A stretch of 64,000 nucleotides of DNA from an uncultured Chloroflexota bacterium. Its GTDB lineage: Bacteria > Chloroflexota > Dehalococcoidia > Lucifugimonadales > CAJXCD01. The DNA lies in assembly GCA_913051545.1 (NCBI GenBank), contig CAJXCD010000002.1:152220-216219 (forward strand), written 5' to 3'. Below the pieces are notes generated by a model. The model searched no databases. It was not told the origin of the DNA and saw only the letters and a list, made by a program, of their open reading frames with translations. The position numbers were made by a program, and so were the translations under genes. The stretch's first letter is position 1. Every line of letters begins with the position of its first letter. This document shows, in pieces, positions 711 through 10,565 of this stretch.

Positions 711-1547
711 CTATATGTAATTTCTAGGTTTGAATGGAAATTTTAGTCTTCGAATAAATCCGGGAGATTGTGACTTGGATGTTTCTTTTAACGGTTCCGG
801 TTTAGGAACAAAAGGTATTTTCATTAAAGCATAGAGTTTGTAAGCCTGTAAAAGAATCCTAATTTCGGTTAGCAATACAGTCCTGCTTATCTTCCAAAAG
901 GACAGAAAAAGATTCCAGTTGTTTAGAGGTATTTCATTAGCGATATAAGTTGTAGATATAACGCATTGTTCTTCTTGATAAAGATTAATTTGTATTTCCA
1001 TTCCAGAGTCAGAATACGAAAATTTGAAAGTGTAATTGTCCTTTCTTTCAATGAATGGTGAAACGTGGAACCGTTTTTTATGAGTGAACTCAGTAAGACC
1101 AGAGTCGAAGTCATTGCCTGAATGAAGAAAATAGATATGTGATTCGCCATACGTATTACTTACTTCCACAGCAGCAGCTAGAACTCTTCCTGTATCACTA
1201 ACTCGGAAAAAGAATGAAGCAGGATTAAAAGAGTATCCAAGTAGAGAGGGCGTTGTTATTAGTAACATAGAGTCAGAGTCAGAGAAACTGTGTGATGATC
1301 CGAAAAGGTCAGCAATTTTTTTTATGATGCTTCTTTTTGAAGCGTCGATATATAACCAGTCTTTTATAGAAAATAGTCCGAACTTGTTGTGAGATATTAA
1401 GTAAGGTAGGTGATCTGATTTTGATAAGTCATCTAGGTCTAAAAGTAGCATGCAGTGATTGTAAGTAAAGCTATGTACTTTTGGTACAAAACGTGTGTGA
1501 TTTAATTTGCCTGTGAGTATTGATGATTTCAAACGATTGCCTGTCAA
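711..1547 (-). CDS. DUF1365 family protein (lipid-modification cluster member)
   Basis: The N-terminus LTGKLNHTRFVPKVHSFTYNHCMLLLDLDDL matches the DUF1365 pattern (G.v.H.R..P..H.F.Y....LDLDEL). It overlaps the upstream FAD oxidoreductase gene by 4 nt, which suggests translational coupling. Confidence 0.8.
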   Translation of the reverse strand: MTGNRLKSSILTGKLNHTRFVPKVHSFTYNHCMLLLDLDDLSKSDHLPYLISHNKFGLFSIKDWLYIDASKRSIIKKIADLFGSSHSFSDSDSMLLITTPSLLGYSFNPASFFFRVSDTGRVLAAAVEVSNTYGESHIYFLHSGNDFDSGLTEFTHKKRFHVSPFIERKDNYTFKFSYSDSGMEIQINLYQEEQCVISTTYIANEIPLNNWNLFLSFWKISRTVLLTEIRILLQAYKLYALMKIPFVPKPEPLKETSKSQSPGFIRRLKFPFKPRNYI

Positions 1548-2791
1548 AACTTTCCTATGGTGTCGGCGACCATTTTCCCGGAAACGAATGCGTCTTCATG
1601 AAAGCCATATCCAAAATAGGAGCCACAAAAGCGAATCGTATTGTATTGATTCAGAACTTTAAAATTGTTGTAGTTAAGTGTTTGATCGTGATTAAGTATT
1701 GGGTGATTATATTTAGTTTTGTATAGTGTATTTTCTTCGGATGGATTTGGATATGGATTAATCGTCACAAAAAATTCGGAACTTGTTTGGAGTTGTTGTA
1801 GGCGGTTCATGTAGTATGTTGTGAATGAGTGAGGGCCAGAATGAGTATCTACATTTATCACATTCCATGACGCCCACACTCTCTTGTTATTGGGCATTAA
1901 AGACTTATCGATATGTAGGAAGGCGTCGTTTTCAGAATACTCATATGTGGATAATATATCTGATAACCTTTCAGGAAAATGTCTAGTAATCTTTAGGGCC
2001 TCATCAGCGTGAGTAGCAATAATTGCTACGTCGAACTCTTGTTCTTCTAGCGCTGCAGATTCTATAACGGCTTTTTCATTTATCGATTTAACGGAAGTTA
2101 CATCAACATTAGTGTAAATTCGACCTCGGAAAATTGATGAAAATTGGTTTATGTAATTCCTGCTAGCTCCTCGTATAGTGAGCCACTGCGGTCGATTCTT
2201 GATATTCAACAACCCGTGATTAGAGAAAAACTGCATGAATGTTGAGGCTGGTATATGTGCAGCATATTTTCCGTCACATGACCAAATAGCAGATGCTATT
2301 GGTACGAAGTAGTTATTTATGATATCTAAGGGGCAACCTATTTTGGTTAGTAAGTCGACGATATTTATCCCGACACTTAGGTGTTCACCTGAATGTTTTT
2401 CCAATAGCTTGGAGTATTTGTATATATTAAATAGGCGGTGAATATGGCTTGCAGATGTTATAGATTTCAGGCTTGGGAAGAGCCCACCTATTGTTCCAGC
2501 ATACTGTATTGCTTTCGACATGTTGGTGTAGGAAAAAGACATGTCTGACCGGTGATTTTCCACGTTGAGTTCCTGTAAAAAATGAAAGAAATTAGGATAA
2601 TTTCTTTCGTTGTAAACAATAAAGCCGGTATCTATGGATACTGTATTACCTGCAGGGTCTTGGGTTGTGATGGTATTTGAGTGTCCGCCAATGACGCTTC
2701 TTTTTTCTATCAGTGTGACTTCGTGTTTATTGTGTAAGTGGTAAGCGGCAGATATTCCAGATATTCCGGCTCCTACAACGGCTATACGCAT
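1544..2791 (-). CDS. NAD/FAD-binding oxidoreductase, COG2907 / amine-oxidase-like
   Basis: N-terminal Rossmann motif MRIAVVGAGISGISAAYHL...EVTLIEKRSVIGGH, followed by DTGFIVYNERNYPNFFHFL, typical of COG2907 proteins. It sits next to DUF1365 and CFA-synthase genes, the conserved arrangement. Confidence 0.8.
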   Translation of the reverse strand: MRIAVVGAGISGISAAYHLHNKHEVTLIEKRSVIGGHSNTITTQDPAGNTVSIDTGFIVYNERNYPNFFHFLQELNVENHRSDMSFSYTNMSKAIQYAGTIGGLFPSLKSITSASHIHRLFNIYKYSKLLEKHSGEHLSVGINIVDLLTKIGCPLDIINNYFVPIASAIWSCDGKYAAHIPASTFMQFFSNHGLLNIKNRPQWLTIRGASRNYINQFSSIFRGRIYTNVDVTSVKSINEKAVIESAALEEQEFDVAIIATHADEALKITRHFPERLSDILSTYEYSENDAFLHIDKSLMPNNKRVWASWNVINVDTHSGPHSFTTYYMNRLQQLQTSSEFFVTINPYPNPSEENTLYKTKYNHPILNHDQTLNYNNFKVLNQYNTIRFCGSYFGYGFHEDAFVSGKMVADTIGKF

Positions 2792-2796
2792 TTTGG

Positions 2797-3891
2797 TCAG
2801 ATGTCCTGGTTTTTGAATAGGTAATTCATTAGATGCCAGTCATTACCTTCGTTATATTTGAATAGTTCTGAACAAGCTAGTAGAAACAGTTTATATCTAT
2901 TTATTAACACCATTGGATGGGTAGGGTGATTGGATTTTTGTATCTTACGGACTAGATTTGATTTATTTGATTCTAGAGTGTTAAGCCAAGCCTCTAGTGT
3001 TAGATGATAGTTGATACCAGACTCAGTCCACGATTTTATCATTGATAGAGGTGAAGGGATATCTTTGTAAAATCCGTCATATGGCATCATTCCGCCAGTG
3101 AAAAAATGACGCGATAACCAGGAGTGTTCAATGTCATCAAACATGTGAGGATGCGTCTTATGTGAGAATACCTGTATAAATAATTTCCCATTTGGATTTA
3201 GCCAATTTGAAACATTTCCCATTAGCTGTTTCGTATTTCTAGTGTGTTCAAACATTTCTATCGATATAATCCTGTCAAACTTCTTAGTTATATCAAGTTT
3301 GTTAATGTCACACTTTATGACTCTCAAATTCTCTATGTTCCTCTTATTGCTGACCGACTCAATGTATTCCTTTTGCGTGGAAGAATTGGTTACAGATGTT
3401 ACCTGAGAGTCGTGATATTTCTCTGCTAGATATAGAGACATAGAGCCCCACCCTGCACCTATATCCAGAATCTTTTGGTCATTATGTATATCAGCTCGCG
3501 ATTCATAAGTGGCTAATGTTTTGTCGTCCGCATCATCAAGATCTTGGCAGTTATCATTCCAATAAGATCCACTGTATTTCATGCGAGTGCCTAATATTGT
3601 TTTGAAAAATTCTGTGGGTACTTCATAGTGTTGAAGATTAGCCTCGTCAGTATTTATTGCTAAATGTCCGGTGGTACATTTGTTTCTGAAAATCGATCTG
3701 ATACTTTCGATTTGATCAGCGTTAAGCCTAGAGATTTTACGGGCATACTTTGTGATGCTTAGCTTGACTAAAAGACGCATTAAGGCATTAGGTAACAACC
3801 AGTTGTCTATTACAGGTTCATACCACATTTGCTGATTTCCTAAGTAACAGTTGAAGATCATCGATGTATTTTGCTGCGAATCCCCCTTCAC
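2797..3891 (-). CDS. SAM-dependent methyltransferase, cyclopropane-fatty-acyl-phospholipid/mycolic acid synthase (CMAS) family, paralogue 2
   Basis: SAM motif ILDIGAGWGSMSLYLAEKY, FDRIISIEMFEH, and the C-terminal YKLFLLACSELF pattern of CMAS enzymes. The annotated start overlaps the upstream gene by 74 nt. Alternative in-frame ATGs at 3861 and 3828 reduce that overlap. Confidence 0.8.
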   Translation of the reverse strand: MKGDSQQNTSMIFNCYLGNQQMWYEPVIDNWLLPNALMRLLVKLSITKYARKISRLNADQIESIRSIFRNKCTTGHLAINTDEANLQHYEVPTEFFKTILGTRMKYSGSYWNDNCQDLDDADDKTLATYESRADIHNDQKILDIGAGWGSMSLYLAEKYHDSQVTSVTNSSTQKEYIESVSNKRNIENLRVIKCDINKLDITKKFDRIISIEMFEHTRNTKQLMGNVSNWLNPNGKLFIQVFSHKTHPHMFDDIEHSWLSRHFFTGGMMPYDGFYKDIPSPLSMIKSWTESGINYHLTLEAWLNTLESNKSNLVRKIQKSNHPTHPMVLINRYKLFLLACSELFKYNEGNDWHLMNYLFKNQDI

Positions 3892-5026
3892 AATAACTGA
3901 AGTAGTAATAAAAACGTCTTATGTCTTTAGTAGAAAAGCCTAGGCGTAATATATCGTTTGATGAGTCTGTAAGATTGTTCCTCCATATTCGTAGGGTCTG
4001 TTCATAGTGTTTTCCTATAGATAAATTGTCTTGTATAACAAAATTATTTGCGTAGCATGCGGACTCAGTGATTGATGACATTGACGGCAACATCCCTCCA
4101 GGGAAAATGTATTTTTGGATATAATCGCAATTTTTTCTGTACGATTCATATCGTTCGTCTGGGATAGTGATGACCTGGATTGATAATGTCCCATCTTCAT
4201 TCAACAGAGAATCGCATTTTCGAAAGAATTCTTTAAGTCCGGTATGACCTACTGCCTCTAACATTTCCACGGAGTAGATTTGGTCAAAATTACCCTTTAG
4301 TGTTCTATAATCTTGGAAAAGAATCCTGATCCTATCGCTGAGGCCAAGTCTGTCTACGAGTTCAGTGCAGTATTCGAACTGGCTTTTTGATAAGGTGACC
4401 CCGGTACCCTCACAGTTGTATTCCTGCACTGCCTTGGTTAGCAGCCCTCCCCACCCGCATCCTATATCTAAAATGTGAGACTTGTCATGGATGTTGCTTT
4501 TAGAAAGAAGTAGCCTTATTTTTTCATCTTGCGCTTCAGACAGGTTAGTTTTATCAGTTTTAAATACAGCGCATGAATAAGTCATCGATGGGTCTAAGAT
4601 CTTTTGAAAAAATTCGTTACTGAGATCATAATGGTCTCTTATATTTCGTTTTGACCAGTATATGGAATTTTTTGATTTAATCTGCTGGACAAATTTTGAA
4701 TACAGTTTTACCGGCAGAAGATTACCGATTGAAATATTGGTGCCGTTCAACCTGTTTTGAGAGAGTTGTTTGAATAAATTAGGTAGGTCATTGCAATTCC
4801 ATTTTTCATTTAAATAGGCCTTTGCAAAACCAAGATCGTAACCTGTTGCTAAATCTACGAAAAAAGACCAATCTAGAACTTCCATATTTGGGGTAAGCGC
4901 GTCTTGTTTTCCCGAGAGGTGTATTTGACGTTTATCTGGAAGTGTTATTGAGGCGTTAAGACCTTTAAAATGCTTTATGACGCTTTTATAAATTAGTTTT
5001 CCGAGCGCTTTGGAGAAGAATTTCAA
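3818..5026 (-). CDS. cfa: cyclopropane-fatty-acyl-phospholipid synthase-like SAM methyltransferase, paralogue 1
   Basis: It aligns by eye with E. coli Cfa: HYDLSNEFFQKILDPSMTYSCAVF, ILDIGCGWGGL, FDQIYSVEMLEAVGH, YIFPGGMLPS, FYYYFSYCEGGF. Confidence 0.85.
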   Translation of the reverse strand: MKFFSKALGKLIYKSVIKHFKGLNASITLPDKRQIHLSGKQDALTPNMEVLDWSFFVDLATGYDLGFAKAYLNEKWNCNDLPNLFKQLSQNRLNGTNISIGNLLPVKLYSKFVQQIKSKNSIYWSKRNIRDHYDLSNEFFQKILDPSMTYSCAVFKTDKTNLSEAQDEKIRLLLSKSNIHDKSHILDIGCGWGGLLTKAVQEYNCEGTGVTLSKSQFEYCTELVDRLGLSDRIRILFQDYRTLKGNFDQIYSVEMLEAVGHTGLKEFFRKCDSLLNEDGTLSIQVITIPDERYESYRKNCDYIQKYIFPGGMLPSMSSITESACYANNFVIQDNLSIGKHYEQTLRIWRNNLTDSSNDILRLGFSTKDIRRFYYYFSYCEGGFAAKYIDDLQLLLRKSANVV

Positions 5027-5084: not shown

Positions 5085-6176
5085 TCAGTTAATTCCACTA
5101 CTTATTTTGCCCTCGGGTTTATGCAGTAAACCTTCAAGATGCATCTTTTTACTCGCCCAAGATTTAATTATCATTTTTAGGCGATACTCAGCATTTTCCA
5201 CCAAACTATTAGGGTTATGGATTTCTTCTGTTTTCAGGCCTATCTCATCCATAACGATTTCTCCGACTATTCCGTAACCACCGTTGATATGTTCAATGGC
5301 TTTTGAAAGAATATGATTTGGAAGGTAAGAAATGAAGTTTTGCTCACTTTTAGAAGCATAGGTGGTTAGTAGCTTACCCAAGCTTTTCCTGTCTCCCAAT
5401 ACTTCGTATATATGTTTAATAATTCTGTGGAGTAATTCAGTTACGTTGCCATTCATTTTGGGTAGCCATTCCTGCGTTTTAGCTTCTATGTGCTTAACAG
5501 GTGGAATATGGTTAGCGGGCATTTCAAAATTCATAGTTGCAAGGATGATCTCTTCTATCAGGGAAGGGTCTGATTCAAGCTGTATAGCGGTCATGTTCCG
5601 AAACTGTATTGTATGAAGAGCTTCTCTACCCTTAACTTTACTTACAAGCTTTGAAGCATCGCTTCCGGTTGGGAAGAATCCTCTTTGCAGCTCATACCAG
5701 TAATCAGTTACACATTCTTGTATTAGTCCGTATGTCGTGAGGCTTGTTGGATGGAACCCAGATGAATGACTTACGTGGTACTCTGACTGTTGTATCGCAT
5801 CTCTGATGCTTTCATCTAGTCTGTATTCATCTATTCCAAAATCCATAAGAATTGTTTTAAATGGCTGTGCGTGTCCCATCTCATCTGGTTCCCAGAAGTT
5901 CTTAACGTAGTTGGATAGCCAATGTGCGTTATGGTTTCTGGCTCCAGTCATGTACGTTTCAGAGTACTGGTCTGTTAAAGATTCTGTTATTAATGACAGC
6001 CTGAAAATATCTACGATTTCATCTTGTGTCATTTCGGTGTGCGAGGCTATTTTATCGAGCGATATTTTCTCTGCTGACAAATTCAATTCGCCCTGTGGTA
6101 TCGTCTGCAGCTTTGGGATTTGGTCCTCGACGTATTGTTCAAGAATCCGAGTGTGTACTGATCTTTTATCGTTCAT
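5085..6176 (-). CDS. ferritin-like di-iron protein, acyl-ACP desaturase-like
   Basis: Two E...EXXH units: LITESLTDQY ... WEPDEMGH and LIQECVTDYW ... KGREALH. These parallel the acyl-ACP desaturase pattern (MITEEALPTY ... AEENRHG; FQERAT ... DEKRHE). The assignment is at family level only. Confidence 0.5.
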   Translation of the reverse strand: MNDKRSVHTRILEQYVEDQIPKLQTIPQGELNLSAEKISLDKIASHTEMTQDEIVDIFRLSLITESLTDQYSETYMTGARNHNAHWLSNYVKNFWEPDEMGHAQPFKTILMDFGIDEYRLDESIRDAIQQSEYHVSHSSGFHPTSLTTYGLIQECVTDYWYELQRGFFPTGSDASKLVSKVKGREALHTIQFRNMTAIQLESDPSLIEEIILATMNFEMPANHIPPVKHIEAKTQEWLPKMNGNVTELLHRIIKHIYEVLGDRKSLGKLLTTYASKSEQNFISYLPNHILSKAIEHINGGYGIVGEIVMDEIGLKTEEIHNPNSLVENAEYRLKMIIKSWASKKMHLEGLLHKPEGKISSGIN

Positions 6177-6192
6177 TATTAAGATATAAATT

Positions 6193-6732
6193 CTACAAAT
6201 TAAACTTTGGGAATTTAGAGACCCAGATTATTCCATCCAGAACAAGACAATGAAGTGTAATGTAGGTTAGTCCTGTTAGGACGAGGTATTTATGGAATAG
6301 CGAAGTGTCCTTCGCTATATATATATAGAAAACCACTACAGTCAGTGAAACTAATGACAGGGCCGTTATCCATAGAGAGCTAACAGTAACAAACCACCAT
6401 AAAGGTTGCTGGGTTTTTATATAGGCGATAGTTGCAGGCATCCAAAAAGTAGCAGAGATCAGGAAAAAAGCGCATATAATACCCAATGTATAAGTACCTA
6501 AGAAGTCAGAGAATACGTCAGCATATTTAGATATTACAGAAAAGCAGAAAGCGATATATCCGATCGCAGCAGGTAACATTGATACTGTAAAGATCGTTTT
6601 CCACGATCCTTCCACTCCTCCCCATAATGCCGCCCTGGACTCAGGATATAGTGCTATGCAGATTGCATAACTAGAAAGTACTGAAATCCCCCCTAATATA
6701 TTTACAAGAACAAAAACCTGCGTACCGGACAT
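6193..6732 (-). CDS. polytopic integral membrane protein, unknown function
   Basis: 179 aa, almost entirely hydrophobic, with about 6 predicted TM spans. An AGGAGA RBS lies upstream of the ATG. It is the first gene of the minus-strand lipid operon. Confidence 0.6.
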   Translation of the reverse strand: MSGTQVFVLVNILGGISVLSSYAICIALYPESRAALWGGVEGSWKTIFTVSMLPAAIGYIAFCFSVISKYADVFSDFLGTYTLGIICAFFLISATFWMPATIAYIKTQQPLWWFVTVSSLWITALSLVSLTVVVFYIYIAKDTSLFHKYLVLTGLTYITLHCLVLDGIIWVSKFPKFNL

Positions 6733-6801
6733 TCGATTCTCCTAATTGGATACAAAGACGATACATATTCACGCAAGCGACGACTACCATACACTAATTA
6801 T

Positions 6802-6842
6802 TAATATAATACAATAATTATGACGGTAATTGTGTTATATTA
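6802..6842. promoter_or_regulatory. inverted repeat TAATATAATACAAT-N13-ATTGTGTTATATTA, candidate operator in a divergent promoter
   Basis: The arms 6802-6815 and 6829-6842 are reverse complements at 13 of 14 positions. The repeat lies in the ~190-nt region between the divergent starts at 6732 (-) and 6924 (+). The background is AT-rich, so a chance match is possible. Confidence 0.35.
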
Positions 6843-6923
6843 CAACATGATGGTTTATAGTGTTGACACTGGGGCACATATTAAAGGACGTAAATAAGTT
6901 TTCTGGTGGTCAGGTTTTTGAAC

Positions 6924-8381
6924 ATGAAAATATTTATTACAGGAGCTACAGGGTTCATAGGTCGGGCACTAGTGGCCCATTTTCTTTCTAAAGGATATTT
7001 GATTACCGCTTGGACCCGGGATGTATCCAGAGCCAGGGACATGTTGGGGGAAGGAGTCCATCTAGTTCCAATAGATGTATCTGATGAAATTCTTCGTCAG
7101 GAGATCGAATCTTCAGACGCCGTGGTTAATCTAGCTGGTAGAGCGATAGTTGGGGTGAGGTGGAACAAAAATGTTAAAGAGGAAATTTATTCCAGCAGGG
7201 TAGGTCTGACGAAAAGGCTAGTCCGTGAGATGAAACTCTGCTCCAGGCAACCGAAGGTTTTGATATCTGCTAGTGCAGTAGGTTACTACGGTGACCGTGA
7301 TTGGGATGAACTGGTAGAACGGTCTTCCGGTGGCACAGGATTTTTGTCTGATTTATGCAGAGACTGGGAACAAGCAGCACTAGATGCAGAAGGTTCAGGC
7401 ACTAGGGTATGTACGATGCGATTTGGAATTGTGTTGGGGAGAGAGGAAGGTATATTAAAACAAGTAACTCCTTCATTTCAGTTAGGTTTGGGTACGTATA
7501 CCGGCACAGGAAAGCAATGTGTACCTTGGATACATATAGACGACATTGTACTAATTATAGGTTTGTGCTTAAGGAATGGTAGGATTTCGGGACCAGTTAA
7601 TTGTACCTCTCCAAATCCAGTTAGTTCATTAGTTTTTTCCAGAACCCTTGGTGCTTTGACTCCCGCTAAGATGTACATCGGTATCCCATCCGTATTACTT
7701 GGTTTACTTTTCGGAGAAGGTGGAAATGTTCTCACAAATAGTCAGAATGCTTTACCAGCTAAACTAATAGACCATGGATACGAGTTTGAATTTCCTAGCC
7801 TATACGATGCGCTTTGGGAGGAGTTTAATTATGAGCACGTTTCTATCAAAGAGGTAGAATCTGAAACTGCTGCAGCCAATCGTGATTCAGCTTTAGTTCC
7901 AAAAGGGCAGTATGAACTTCGAACAAATGTGGAATTAAATGCTCTCCCAAAAGAGACTTTTTCTTTCTTCTCCTCACCTCTTAATTTAGGTATCACAACA
8001 CCATCGTGGATGAGATTTCGAATAATAAATATGCCTGTACAGATTGATAAAGACTCTCGTATTTTATACAAAATCAGCCTTGGATTTGGAATTCTTAGTC
8101 TACGATGGACTACTCGAATATTAGACTGGAACCCAGACGAATCATTTACAGACGTTCAAGAAAAAGGTCCTTATAACCTGTGGTTCCATCAGCATCGTGT
8201 AATTGGGACAGATAAAGGGACTTCAATAATGGAAGATCGCGTAATTTACAGTGTTCCATTGGGTATATTAGGAAAATTAACACACATGGTATTTATCAAA
8301 GGGATTTTAATTCGTATATTCAACTACAGAAGAAAAGTCATCCGTCAGATATTTTGTTCTGAGGAAATCAGAAGGCAATAA
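6924..8381 (+). CDS. TIGR01777/YfcH-type NAD-dependent epimerase-like domain fused to a C-terminal SRPBCC (cyclase/dehydrase-like) ligand-binding domain
   Basis: MKIFITGATGFIGRALV Rossmann start, so I prefer ATG 6924 over the track GTG 6906. The C-terminal ~160 aa (W..RILDWNPDESFTDVQEKGPYNLWFHQHRV...MEDRVIYSVPLGILG) has the SRPBCC pattern often fused to YfcH homologues. Confidence 0.75.
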   Translation: MKIFITGATGFIGRALVAHFLSKGYLITAWTRDVSRARDMLGEGVHLVPIDVSDEILRQEIESSDAVVNLAGRAIVGVRWNKNVKEEIYSSRVGLTKRLVREMKLCSRQPKVLISASAVGYYGDRDWDELVERSSGGTGFLSDLCRDWEQAALDAEGSGTRVCTMRFGIVLGREEGILKQVTPSFQLGLGTYTGTGKQCVPWIHIDDIVLIIGLCLRNGRISGPVNCTSPNPVSSLVFSRTLGALTPAKMYIGIPSVLLGLLFGEGGNVLTNSQNALPAKLIDHGYEFEFPSLYDALWEEFNYEHVSIKEVESETAAANRDSALVPKGQYELRTNVELNALPKETFSFFSSPLNLGITTPSWMRFRIINMPVQIDKDSRILYKISLGFGILSLRWTTRILDWNPDESFTDVQEKGPYNLWFHQHRVIGTDKGTSIMEDRVIYSVPLGILGKLTHMVFIKGILIRIFNYRRKVIRQIFCSEEIRRQ

Positions 8382-8382
8382 C

Positions 8383-9270
8383 TTGGTTACTATAGAAAAT
8401 AGTCTCATTAATAAACTGACTAGACGTTTGACGGAGGGGCTCAGGTCAGGTGATCAAAGGCAGTGTCTATATGTGATCGATGAGGCCCTAGACAGTAGAT
8501 TTAGCCCTGGAATTATATACACGAATATCATCTCCCCCGCTAATGTGGAGATAGGAAATCTGTGGCACAAAGGACACATATCTATTGCACACGAACACGT
8601 ATCAACCCAGATTTCCATGAAATTACTTGACCATGTCTTGGATAAGTCCACTAATTCTTTACCAAATGGTCTAAGTGCGATAGTTACTTCTGTTCAGGGA
8701 GACGGACATTGCTTGGGGGCTAAGATGATGTCAAATTTACTGTCCTTAGACGGATGGAAGGTATTTTACTTGGGTGAAAATACTCCTGCAGATGATATTG
8801 CGAGGCTGGTAATTGAAAGTGGATCCAAGGTTGTAGCTCTTTCAGTAACACTGGATAGAAACATCAAAAATGCCATATTTTCTATAGAGGTTCTTAAAAA
8901 TTTAATCGATCCACCTTTAGTTGTATTGGGTGGAGCTGCTATATCTGAAAACTTACTTGAATTCAACGAAGCTTTGGTTGTGACAGATCCGGTTAGTGCA
9001 GTATATAAGTTAAGAAAAGAATTTTGCATAGGTGCTGAGCACCTAACATTGAATGGGCTGTTGGCTCAGATAGGCATCAAGGTATTTGAAAAGCGTAAAG
9101 CAATTGGTAGGAGTCAGGGGCAACTCGCGGAATTAGCCGGTGTAGATAAAGCTTATATTAGTCTAGTTGAAAACGGGAAACAGAATTTAACTATGGGACG
9201 ATTGCTTAGGATAGCACAGGCTCTGGATATTAGTGTATCTGATCTCTTAGAAACATCCAGTAATCTGTAG
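8383..9270 (+). CDS. cobalamin-binding (CarH-like B12 module) transcriptional regulator with C-terminal XRE-family HTH
   Basis: B12-binding cap with W61-x9-E71-H72 (NLWHKGHISIAHEH). Rossmann B12 domain with D107-x-H109-x-x-G112 (GDGHCLG) and LGENTPADDI. C-terminal HTH_3-like segment KRKAIGRSQGQLAELAGVDKAYISLVENGKQNLTMGRLLRIAQALDISVSDLL. The TTG start lies 1 nt after the upstream stop. Confidence 0.8.
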   Translation: MVTIENSLINKLTRRLTEGLRSGDQRQCLYVIDEALDSRFSPGIIYTNIISPANVEIGNLWHKGHISIAHEHVSTQISMKLLDHVLDKSTNSLPNGLSAIVTSVQGDGHCLGAKMMSNLLSLDGWKVFYLGENTPADDIARLVIESGSKVVALSVTLDRNIKNAIFSIEVLKNLIDPPLVVLGGAAISENLLEFNEALVVTDPVSAVYKLRKEFCIGAEHLTLNGLLAQIGIKVFEKRKAIGRSQGQLAELAGVDKAYISLVENGKQNLTMGRLLRIAQALDISVSDLLETSSNL

Positions 9271-9324: not shown

Positions 9325-9801
9325 TTAAGTATCTATAGAAAGTATGGTTTGTAGTGATGGGACTCTACCACTTCTTTTCCAGACCAAATTCCCATTAGTA
9401 TCGAATACGATAAATATAGGTGTAACGTTCGCGTTATATTTTTTGCGTACGTACTTTCCTATTTCAGAGCCGATATCAAATCTAACGACTACATACTCAT
9501 CGCCTAGTTGATTCTCTAGCCTGTCCACGGCAGGCTTGGCCGAGAGGCATGCCACTCAGTAATTTGAGTACAACTCAAGTAAAACGGGTTTTCCAGACGT
9601 TAAAACATTATCTAACTCGACTATGCTGGAAATACTACTGGAAGTGGTAGATCCAATTATTTGGAATGAGGTTATAGATATGAATGTAATTGAAACTGCA
9701 ATTATCGTCCATTTAAGTTCGAATGTCCTCCAGGTTGCAAATGTTACGATTAGCAGGATTAGCAATCCTGTCACTATCGATGAGTATTGATTGATGAACA
9801 T
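9325..9801 (-). CDS. membrane-anchored thioredoxin-fold protein with in-frame TGA at the redox motif (candidate selenoprotein, UxxC)
   Basis: Track ORFs 9556..9837 and 9325..9555 abut in the same frame and are separated only by TGA (9556-9558). Joined, they read GKPVLLELYSNY-U-VAC-LSAKPAVDRLENQLGDEYVVVRFDI...TPIFIVFDTNGNLVW, a thioredoxin beta1-CxxC-alpha1 layout. The N-terminus is hydrophobic. ATG 9801-9799 overlaps the upstream stop (TAATG), and an alternative ATG lies at 9837. Confidence 0.65.
9514..9546 (-). other. candidate bacterial SECIS hairpin downstream of the UGA
   Basis: The minus-strand RNA from +13 to +45 after the UGA is CUCU-CGGCCA-AGCCUG-CCGUGGA-CAGGCU-AGAG. It has a 6-bp upper stem (AGCCUG/CAGGCU), a 7-nt apical loop containing GU, and a 4-bp lower stem (CUCU/AGAG) with an asymmetric internal loop. 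I folded it by hand only. Confidence 0.45.
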
Positions 9802-10544
9802 TATTTGCCCCAAGTGGAGAAAAATTCTGGCCCCCATCGCCGAGCCAGTAGAATCGTTTTCCTGGAGTAAGAACCATATGGTGGAGCAGTTTGACTATCT
9901 ATCCATGATTCAGCAGCATCCAGGGTTGGTAATTCGGTTATGGAAACTTTGTGCCAGTCTGTTTGCGGACTCATCAAATGAAACTCTTCGAAACTCATGA
10001 GTCTATGGGTCTTTGCACTGCGGCTACAACGGTCTAAGTATTCACTATCTCCTCGATCCTCAGGACTAGTGAAGGAATGTTCAGGGAGTAACCTTGAAAA
10101 CATCAAAACAAGTACGCTATTTTTATCCTCACGTATATGAGGCAGATTGTTTGGATCAATGGTATTTTCTGTTTTAATAATTTTCCGTGGGTGTGTGACT
10201 AATTGAGAGTGATTGTGTTGGATTGAACGATATGCCAGATGGTATTCATAGTTTCCGTATGAACCGTAGGGTGGCGCCATTTCAGCTTTAATCCATTCTG
10301 TTGCACCGTCTAAGGTGGGGAATTCTATCACCCAGAATTTTTCCCATGATTTTTGAGGACCGAGCAACTTGTACCCTTGGATACCAATCAAGTCATACTT
10401 TTGAACAACTTCTAGCATAAGTTCGACATGAATTCTTTCATATTCCTTTTGGTCGGAACGTGAGACACGATGCCAAGTTGGTAGTCTCCCGCCTTTGAAT
10501 AATACGACCACACTGTTATTAATATTTTGTGTTTTGTCACTCAT
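9801..10544 (-). CDS. hypothetical protein with two tandem DUF1330-like (dimeric alpha/beta barrel-like) domains
   Basis: There is an internal duplication: FWVIEFPTLDGATEWIKAEMAPPYGSYGNYEY and VSITELPTLDAAESWIDSQTAPPYGSYSRKTI. The pattern resembles the DUF1330 C-terminus (vIEFPS.e.A..Wy.SpeY). Confidence 0.5.
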   Translation of the reverse strand: MSDKTQNINNSVVVLFKGGRLPTWHRVSRSDQKEYERIHVELMLEVVQKYDLIGIQGYKLLGPQKSWEKFWVIEFPTLDGATEWIKAEMAPPYGSYGNYEYHLAYRSIQHNHSQLVTHPRKIIKTENTIDPNNLPHIREDKNSVLVLMFSRLLPEHSFTSPEDRGDSEYLDRCSRSAKTHRLMSFEEFHLMSPQTDWHKVSITELPTLDAAESWIDSQTAPPYGSYSRKTILLARRWGPEFFSTWGK

Positions 10545-10565
10545 ATAGCACTATTATAGGTAGTA

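Follow-up and report, generated by a model that had tools for sequence, protein, structure and literature searches.

The regulator gene and its cobalamin module

In this study, we have analysed a 64,000-nucleotide stretch of DNA from an uncultured Chloroflexota bacterium (contig CAJXCD010000002.1 of assembly GCA_913051545.1, positions 152,220 to 216,219; hereafter the window, whose own numbering is used throughout), focusing on a gene at 8383-9270 that encodes a putative transcriptional regulator of 295 amino acids (aa). The gene starts 2 nucleotides past the stop codon of its upstream neighbour, and its product combines a cobalamin-binding module with a helix-turn-helix (HTH) domain, as follows:

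8383-9270, plus strand: regulator gene, 295 aa, TTG start; cobalamin photoreceptor-type module followed by a C-terminal XRE/HTH_3 domain
8422-8634, plus strand: four-helix-bundle cap, B12-binding_2, aa 14-84 (Pfam, 49.1 bits, cut-off 23)
8674-8946, plus strand: Rossmann-type B12-binding domain, aa 98-188 (Pfam, 45.5 bits, cut-off 32.1)
9088-9246, plus strand: XRE/HTH_3 DNA-binding domain, aa 236-288 (Pfam, 49.2 bits, cut-off 23)

An initial annotation, made from the sequence alone, had claimed for this protein a cap and a Rossmann domain with the hallmarks W61-x9-E71-H72 and D107-x-H109-x-x-G112, a clear C-terminal XRE/HTH_3 domain and, with it, a reversed domain order and a different HTH class from those of known light-sensing repressors. 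The domains and their order are borne out by the hmmscan comparison that it proposed, in which B12-binding_2, B12-binding and HTH_3 appear in this order and above their gathering cut-offs, with E-values from 5e-13 to 8e-12, much smaller than chance would give, the HTH_3 match spanning profile positions 3-55 of 55. The N-terminus opens straight with the four-helix cap, and Pfam gives no match to a MerR/HTH_17 domain in the regulator, leaving HTH_3 as the sole DNA-binding domain. Both hallmark motifs are found at the residues named. The cap carries G58-x-x-W61, H62 and E71-H72 (W61 encoded by TGG at 8563-8565, E71-H72 by GAA CAC at 8593-8598), and the Rossmann domain carries D107-G-H109-C-L-G112 (H109 codon, CAT at 8707-8709), in which G106-D-G-H109 supplies the candidate lower axial histidine, together with G131-E-N-T-P135. 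The HTH string quoted in the annotation is likewise present; the recognition-helix region reads D255-x-A-Y258-I-S260-L-V262-E263-N-G265-K-Q267-N268 and is near-invariant, and the sequence relatives of the domain include C.AhdI, SinR and the 434 repressor.

Several lines of evidence relate the cobalamin module to photoreceptors. Light-responsive cobalamin domains have been described by the SignatureFinder signature GxxW, EH, GxxH and GxxxP, which non-photoreceptor cobalamin domains are reported to lack (PMC11796333). All four elements occur in the regulator (GNLW, EH, GDGH and GENTP), which does fall within this published definition, while belonging to the XRE family by its DNA-binding domain. 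Among the NCBIfam models, the CarH equivalog NF052513 scores highest (81.3 bits, over model positions 81-261 only, the B12 part of CarH), with the models of corrinoid methyltransferase proteins and MetH scoring lower, at 31-47 bits. In the PDB, corrinoid methyltransferase proteins and MetH rank below the sequences of the photocobilin SasPcob (5e-18), TtCarH (1e-13) and CtMerR (5e-13), and W61/H62/E71/H72/H109 align on W131/H132/E141/H142/H177 of TtCarH.

The structural comparison with CarH suggested in the initial annotation leads to the same group of proteins. An AlphaFold2 model built with 49 family sequences (mean predicted local distance difference test score, pLDDT, 89.6) shows a four-helix bundle with helices at residues 2-22, 25-37, 42-62 and 68-88, a Rossmann domain, a linker of lower confidence and an HTH domain of five short helices. 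The model superposes on CarH-type cobalamin domains: in a Foldseek search of the PDB, the top matches are all photoreceptor cobalamin domains, namely photocobilins, CtMerR and many TtCarH entries, with target-normalised template-modelling (TM) scores of 0.78-0.84 for CtMerR and close to 0.8 for the TtCarH domain and root-mean-square deviations (rmsd) of 2.6-4 Å. One match to the CtMerR cobalamin domain has TM 0.84 and rmsd 2.7 Å.

Two other identities were considered for the protein and rejected. A corrinoid methyltransferase protein of the MtbC/MtaC/MttC type, as the Joint Genome Institute (JGI) label would have it, scores 37-47 bits against cut-offs of 215-450, and no MT1/MT2-type methyltransferase gene adjoins the regulator in the window or in related loci. 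A photocobilin would require a biliverdin-binding globin-like domain, which is absent; HTH_3 follows the Rossmann domain instead, and the alignment to the photocobilin entry 8j2w covers aa 16-172 only.

The regulator belongs to a conserved family, found in metagenomes and genomes alike by the survey of the B12-XRE order that had also been proposed. A word-indexed search returned about 48 full-length proteins in which the Pfam domains follow this order, the named ones being from SAR202 or Dehalococcoidia. A scan of one genome per species gave 34 loci, which come exclusively from SAR202, Dehalococcoidia or Chloroflexota and are each at most 47% identical to the query, and an exhaustive profile search of 1.84 billion representatives gave at least 150 clusters at 50% identity with the B12-then-XRE architecture. 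Nearly all of these clusters match the whole profile in a single stretch, and they are mostly from SAR202/Dehalococcoidia; TARA surface and deep-chlorophyll-maximum samples are among the sources of family members. Across 137 aligned members, 25-53% identical to the query, conservation reaches at least 90% at G58, W61, E71, H72, H109, G131 and P135 and in most of the HTH recognition region. W61 and E71 are invariant. H62 reaches 90% conservation in the SAR202 subgroup only. The photoreceptor-type nature claimed for the module in the initial annotation thus gains support from a complete light-responsive signature that is at least 90% conserved, as well as from the light- and LitR-type neighbouring genes described below.

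The architecture is probably not confined to Chloroflexota, since one member lies in a 7.9-Mb genome next to sulfatase and DUF1501 genes. In this genome (L043, contig ctg322092_36x_l), which is probably not from Chloroflexota judging by its sulfatase, DUF1501 and BNR neighbours, two B12 regulators lie about 4 kb apart, at 2154-3044 and 7001-7912. One has the conventional HTH_17-then-B12 order and the other the B12-then-XRE order, and the pair adjoins a FA_desaturase / amine-oxidase gene pair.

Divergent operons and a candidate operator

The regulator gene stands at the end of an operon led by a short-chain dehydrogenase/reductase (SDR) gene, which faces a divergent operon of lipid-related genes:

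6906-8381, plus strand: TIGR01777/YfcH-type SDR (Epimerase and DUF1731), first gene of the regulator operon
6193-6732, minus strand: predicted membrane protein, 179 aa, first gene of the divergent operon; no family match, position conserved
5085-6176, minus strand: predicted di-iron carboxylate protein, 363 aa, resembling acyl-acyl-carrier-protein (acyl-ACP) desaturases
3818-5026, minus strand: CMAS-family S-adenosylmethionine (SAM)-dependent fatty-acyl methyltransferase (cyclopropane-fatty-acid synthase / UfaM type), 402 aa (Pfam CMAS, 283 bits; NCBIfam)
2797-3891, minus strand: second, more divergent CMAS-family methyltransferase, 364 aa (Pfam CMAS, 129.5 bits)
1544-2791, minus strand: amine-oxidase / phytoene-desaturase-like protein dependent on flavin adenine dinucleotide (FAD), UfaD type, 415 aa
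711-1547, minus strand: DUF1365 protein, UfaO type, 278 aa (Pfam DUF1365, 189 bits)

The true start of the SDR is probably the ATG at 6924 and not the GTG at 6906, as its homologues begin at the equivalent position (MKIFITGATG). The protein is extended at its C-terminus by about 180 aa (aa 305-491), a region for which Pfam, NCBIfam and PDB sequence searches gave no match.

This arrangement is widely kept. The regulator closes an SDR-led operon in the window and in all relatives at least 38% identical to it that have enough flanking DNA, with the SDR directly upstream in all syntenic loci. The divergent lipid genes are present in most such loci, L012 and L022 being the exceptions, the 363-aa gene is missing from a few syntenic loci, and the synteny with a UfaO/UfaD/UfaM-like cluster persists at about 45% regulator identity.

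In the case of the 363-aa protein, Pfam, NCBIfam and PDB sequence searches gave no match, and structure comparison was the only route that worked. Its model (pLDDT 78) finds its nearest fold in the soluble stearoyl-ACP desaturases of plants, with TM scores of 0.55-0.6, and the alignment shows an invariant set of E65, E99-x-x-H102, E154 and E185-x-x-H188. From this residue set and the modelled fold, we predict that the protein is a di-iron acyl-desaturase-like enzyme, fitting a lipid-modifying operon. It is the best-conserved gene product of the cluster, its known sources are SAR202/Dehalococcoidia only, and it may represent an unrecognised family of fatty-acyl desaturases or oxygenases.

Three enzymes make furan fatty acids, namely the SAM-dependent methylase UfaM, the phytoene-desaturase-like flavoprotein UfaD and the DUF1365 protein UfaO (Lemke et al., PMC7380195). 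Singlet oxygen induces this set in Rhodobacter sphaeroides, whose RSP1091-1087 operon contains ufaD and ufaO, and the products build up there once the anti-sigma factor ChrR is removed (PMC7380195). At the sequence level, the divergent operon appears as one resembling this set, which serves in the defence against singlet oxygen. More distant members of the regulator family (30-36% identity) adjoin genes for DNA photolyase, TudS-DUF1722 (RudS-like) and SDR-DUF2867 proteins. RudS genes are reported to sit in light-responsive operons with phrB and LitR (PMC11417400), and in Pseudomonas the targets of LitR-family regulators comprise phrB and ufaM together with genes for a short-chain dehydrogenase and an FAD oxidoreductase (PMC9758184). 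By analogy, the genomic context points to light, with target genes of the LitR/CarH or sigmaE-ChrR type apparently recurring with another type of regulator. Among ten further large open reading frames (ORFs) of the window, none encodes a photolyase or other photoreceptor.

The region between the two operons contains a palindrome of 16 base pairs (bp) and a second, degenerate copy of it:

6830-6845, palindromic, no strand assigned: candidate primary operator, TTGTGTTATATTACAA, overlapping the extended -10-like TGtTATATT of the plus-strand operon
6799-6814, minus strand: degenerate second copy, TTGTATTATATTAATA, facing the divergent operon, 31 bp from the primary site

The palindrome, with consensus TTGTGYTATRRTACAA, is found at the divergent promoter of every syntenic locus in which this region is present, and in locus L017, where an extra gene has shifted the operon start, it has shifted along. 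It encloses a -10-like TATAAT preceded by TG, the centres of its TGT/ACA arms are 10 bp apart, a spacing that would suit an HTH dimer, and its outermost positions vary symmetrically between clades (T..A, A..T or G..C). With a symmetrised family matrix, trained on primary sites of loci that are related and hence not independent, 6830 is the only position to reach at least 10 bits in the 64-kb window, with a score of 20. The next-best site of each intergenic region lies exactly 20 bp off in 10 of the 15 loci and 31-32 bp off in three, including the window, and an alignment of these regions shows two conserved blocks, the better palindrome of the two differing by clade. Such a bipartite layout suggests a dimer of dimers, and it is only this layout that hints at the different oligomerisation logic predicted in the initial annotation. 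A pattern search and the matrix scan revealed no further targets of the regulator in the window; positions 10561 and 12443, with 8.6-9.7 bits, lie inside or at the end of coding sequence and were set aside as chance matches.

The palindrome occurs again, as ATGTATTTTAATACAA and TTGTATTCTAATACAC, at 206-221 of L013 and 941-956 of L014, where it precedes by about 65-80 bp a conserved gene for a 134-aa zinc-ribbon protein, located at the other end of the lipid cluster. This gene, which has no homologue in the window, may be an additional member of the regulon in the L013 and L014 lineages.

A proposed light-dependent repressor and its alternatives

What is observed directly is which domains the protein has and in what order, its signature residues and how well they are conserved, its structural similarity, and the conserved synteny and palindrome. 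Together, these findings suggest that the regulator is a photoreceptor based on adenosylcobalamin (AdoCbl) and a transcriptional repressor, CarH-like but built differently, a reading to which we give a probability of about 0.65. For cofactor binding, photochemistry, oligomeric state, operator identity and the sign of regulation, we infer the following model. In the dark, AdoCbl would be held between the cap (W61, E71 and H72) and the Rossmann domain, with H109 as the lower ligand, leading to oligomerisation. Paired HTH domains would then bind the TTGTGYTATRRTACAA palindrome over the -10 box, and the weaker partner site, two or three helical turns off, would allow a dimer of dimers to form. Two divergent promoters would be blocked in this way, that of the SDR-regulator operon, which implies autoregulation, and that of the lipid operon of furan-fatty-acid type. 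Light would break the Co-C bond, the oligomer would dissociate and both operons would be derepressed, so that the outcome would be a membrane photoprotection induced by light.

A number of observations weigh against this model. The 81 bits obtained with the CarH equivalog compare with a curated cut-off of 400, H62 is not kept across the wider family and a few members are without H109 or H72. No gene for B12 uptake, synthesis or adenosylation was found in the parts of the window examined, nor was a cobalamin riboswitch, a scan of the whole window at the Rfam gathering threshold returning no matches. The palindrome is only sporadic upstream of distant members, being clear only in L025, L027 and L043 and indistinguishable from background in most of the others, and the operator model is therefore limited to the syntenic subgroup. 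The palindrome also holds an extended -10 element (TGnTATAAT), its left half resembles the -16 TRTG element, and part or all of its conservation, as well as its 20-bp partner, could come from two back-to-back promoters and not from an operator.

The latter points lead to an alternative view of the palindrome as a symmetric, bidirectional extended -10 promoter, with the true target of the regulator lying elsewhere. In addition to the embedded TGnTATAAT, the reverse strand presents a -10-like hexamer, the 20-bp partner falls on the -10 of the opposite promoter, and distant members show the motif weakly or not at all. However, the window holds dozens of promoters, and yet no other position in it reaches 10 bits; the outer TTGT/ACAA is conserved and the clade changes are symmetric, neither of which a promoter needs; the half-site centres lie 10 bp apart, fitting an HTH dimer; and the element moves with the operon start in L017. 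We thus consider it unlikely that the palindrome is simply a promoter, and keep it as the candidate operator of the regulator.

The regulator could also be a cobalamin sensor independent of light, which would report the availability or the form of B12 and adjust transcription to it. The domains alone show just a corrinoid-binding fold, the automatic JGI name is 'methanogenic corrinoid protein MtbC1/XRE regulator', and many SAR202 lineages live in deep water. Against this, the cap has the full photoreceptor signature, which is lacking in non-photoreceptor cobalamin domains (PMC11796333), and corrinoid methyltransferase proteins score below photoreceptors. As the neighbouring genes are moreover of photoprotection and ultraviolet-repair types, rather than B12-dependent enzymes or transporters, a sensor of B12 as such appears improbable.

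Regulators that bind B12 but follow another logic, such as AerR and PpaA, do exist, and by this logic a cobalamin photoproduct would be bound after illumination, with DNA binding or activation taking place in the light. H62 could act as the upper ligand in such a protein. The strong site over the -10 element is nevertheless the position of a repressor, a light-dependent repression of photoprotective genes makes little sense, and the nearest relatives in structure and sequence are photoreceptors of the AdoCbl type, all of which makes an AerR-like behaviour a poor prospect. Finally, a cofactor-independent repressor, in which the B12 module would serve merely for oligomerisation or partner binding (like CarA, or class II LitR as the effector of another photoreceptor), is very improbable: degenerate relatives do occur in the CarH/LitR family (PMC9758184) and the losses of H109 or H72 in a few members would agree with it, but both domains are complete in the regulator, no LOV, BLUF or CarS-like partner gene is conserved beside it in the window or in related loci, and all signature residues in contact with the cofactor reach at least 90% conservation over 137 sequences of about 30% identity, which argues for selection on cofactor binding.

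The AdoCbl-dependent light repressor remains our preferred reading for the protein encoded in the window. Its extension to a distinct class, in which B12 photoreceptor repressors with the sensor in front and the XRE domain behind would act as AdoCbl-dependent dimers of dimers on bipartite palindromic operators, constitute the main light switch of SAR202/Dehalococcoidia and make a light-induced membrane protection of furan-fatty-acid type depend on the B12 supply, is a more tentative proposal, for which we see slightly less than even chances.

Comparison with known systems and further observations

CarH and the class I LitR proteins (Thermus thermophilus, Myxococcus xanthus and Bacillus megaterium) share with the regulator the two-domain sensor, W-x9-E-H and the lower axial histidine, and the likeness extends to predicted targets that are photoprotective and to a predicted operator that overlaps the promoter. 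The regulator, however, is without the N-terminal MerR domain, is predicted to bind DNA through its C-terminal XRE/HTH_3 domain, the order thus being reversed, and scores below the curated model cut-off, so that it is not a member of that family. Its predicted regulon is one of lipid modification, whereas that of CarH is one of carotenoid synthesis, and its predicted operator is a palindrome, in contrast to the 11-bp direct repeats that form the operator of TtCarH.

The closest solved structures are those of CtMerR and the photocobilins (SasPcob and AbDPcob; PMC11796333, PMC10979010), with which the GxxW/EH/GxxH/GxxxP signature is shared. CtMerR differs by its N-terminal MerR domain. The photocobilins, like the regulator, place the output domain C-terminal to the cobalamin module, but this domain is a biliverdin-binding globin-like one (with a diguanylate cyclase in AbDPcob) instead of an XRE HTH. 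As regards the XRE/Cro-C1 repressors (434 repressor, SinR, C.AhdI and HipB), the five-helix HTH_3 domain and the predicted short palindromic target are held in common, and the difference resides in the oligomerisation/sensor part, which in the regulator is an N-terminal B12 photoreceptor module. The sigmaE-ChrR regulon of R. sphaeroides (RSP1091-1087, with ufaD and ufaO) and the LitR regulons of Pseudomonas (phrB, ufaM, SDR, FAD oxidoreductase and RudS) comprise the same kinds of target genes under another class of regulator, and the SAR202 cluster adds to them the di-iron desaturase-like protein and a second CMAS paralogue.

The initial annotation was aware of no characterised member with this architecture, and none was found in the literature that we searched, which holds nothing specific on an XRE protein with a B12 photoreceptor sensor or on light regulation in SAR202. 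A 2024 in silico SignatureFinder survey mentions, in generic terms only, such domains fused to HTH domains at either end (PMC11796333), and databases label the family as 'helix-turn-helix domain-containing', 'cobalamin-dependent protein' or 'MtbC1/XRE regulator' (JGI). Thus, of the non-canonical architecture put forward in the annotation, the domain order holds, but it is less exotic than was implied, as the family is large and automatically annotated and HTH fusions have been surveyed. As the modularity of the sensor is already recognised, the architecture is unsurprising in principle.

SAR202/Dehalococcoidia are among the most abundant bacteria of the ocean. If our reading is correct, the regulator would give SAR202, a marine clade both abundant and uncultured, its first candidate light sensor for which a regulon and an operator are predicted, and photoprotection in this clade would be tied to B12, a vitamin that is scarce and traded in the sea. 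The light-sensing module of CarH would drive here another DNA-binding fold from the opposite end, which bears on how photolysis becomes loss of DNA binding. From a practical point of view, optogenetics would gain a compact repressor that responds to green light and acts on a simple palindromic operator of 16 bp. The analysis also provides a concrete functional hypothesis for a conserved lipid-modification cluster with an unannotated di-iron desaturase-like enzyme.

Some neighbouring genes deserve to be recorded in their own right. In one SAR202 lineage, a periplasmic-binding-protein/FecCD/ABC-ATPase transporter and a ferrochelatase-family gene are located 3-8 kb downstream of the regulator (L001, 11691-16897), and may serve the uptake of corrinoids or of iron chelates. 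Photolyase and distant members of the regulator family have a further recurring neighbour, a conserved protein of about 390 aa (L029, 11662-12846; L038, 7189-8370; L019, 1415-2581), whose one match, to a DICT domain, is weak (23 bits, below the cut-off).

In the window itself, two abutting ORFs of 93 and 76 aa on the minus strand at 9325-9837 are split by an in-frame TGA at 9556-9558, and their sequence indicates that they probably form a single selenoprotein gene. For this candidate, there is no significant hairpin after the UGA (z = +0.75) and no Rfam match. The read-through product would be a membrane-anchored thioredoxin-fold protein with the sequence ...LLELYSNY-U-VAC-LSAKP, that is, with UxxC where CxxC is expected, and a 45%-identical homologue in L038 (2320-2784, minus strand) carries an in-frame stop at the same position.

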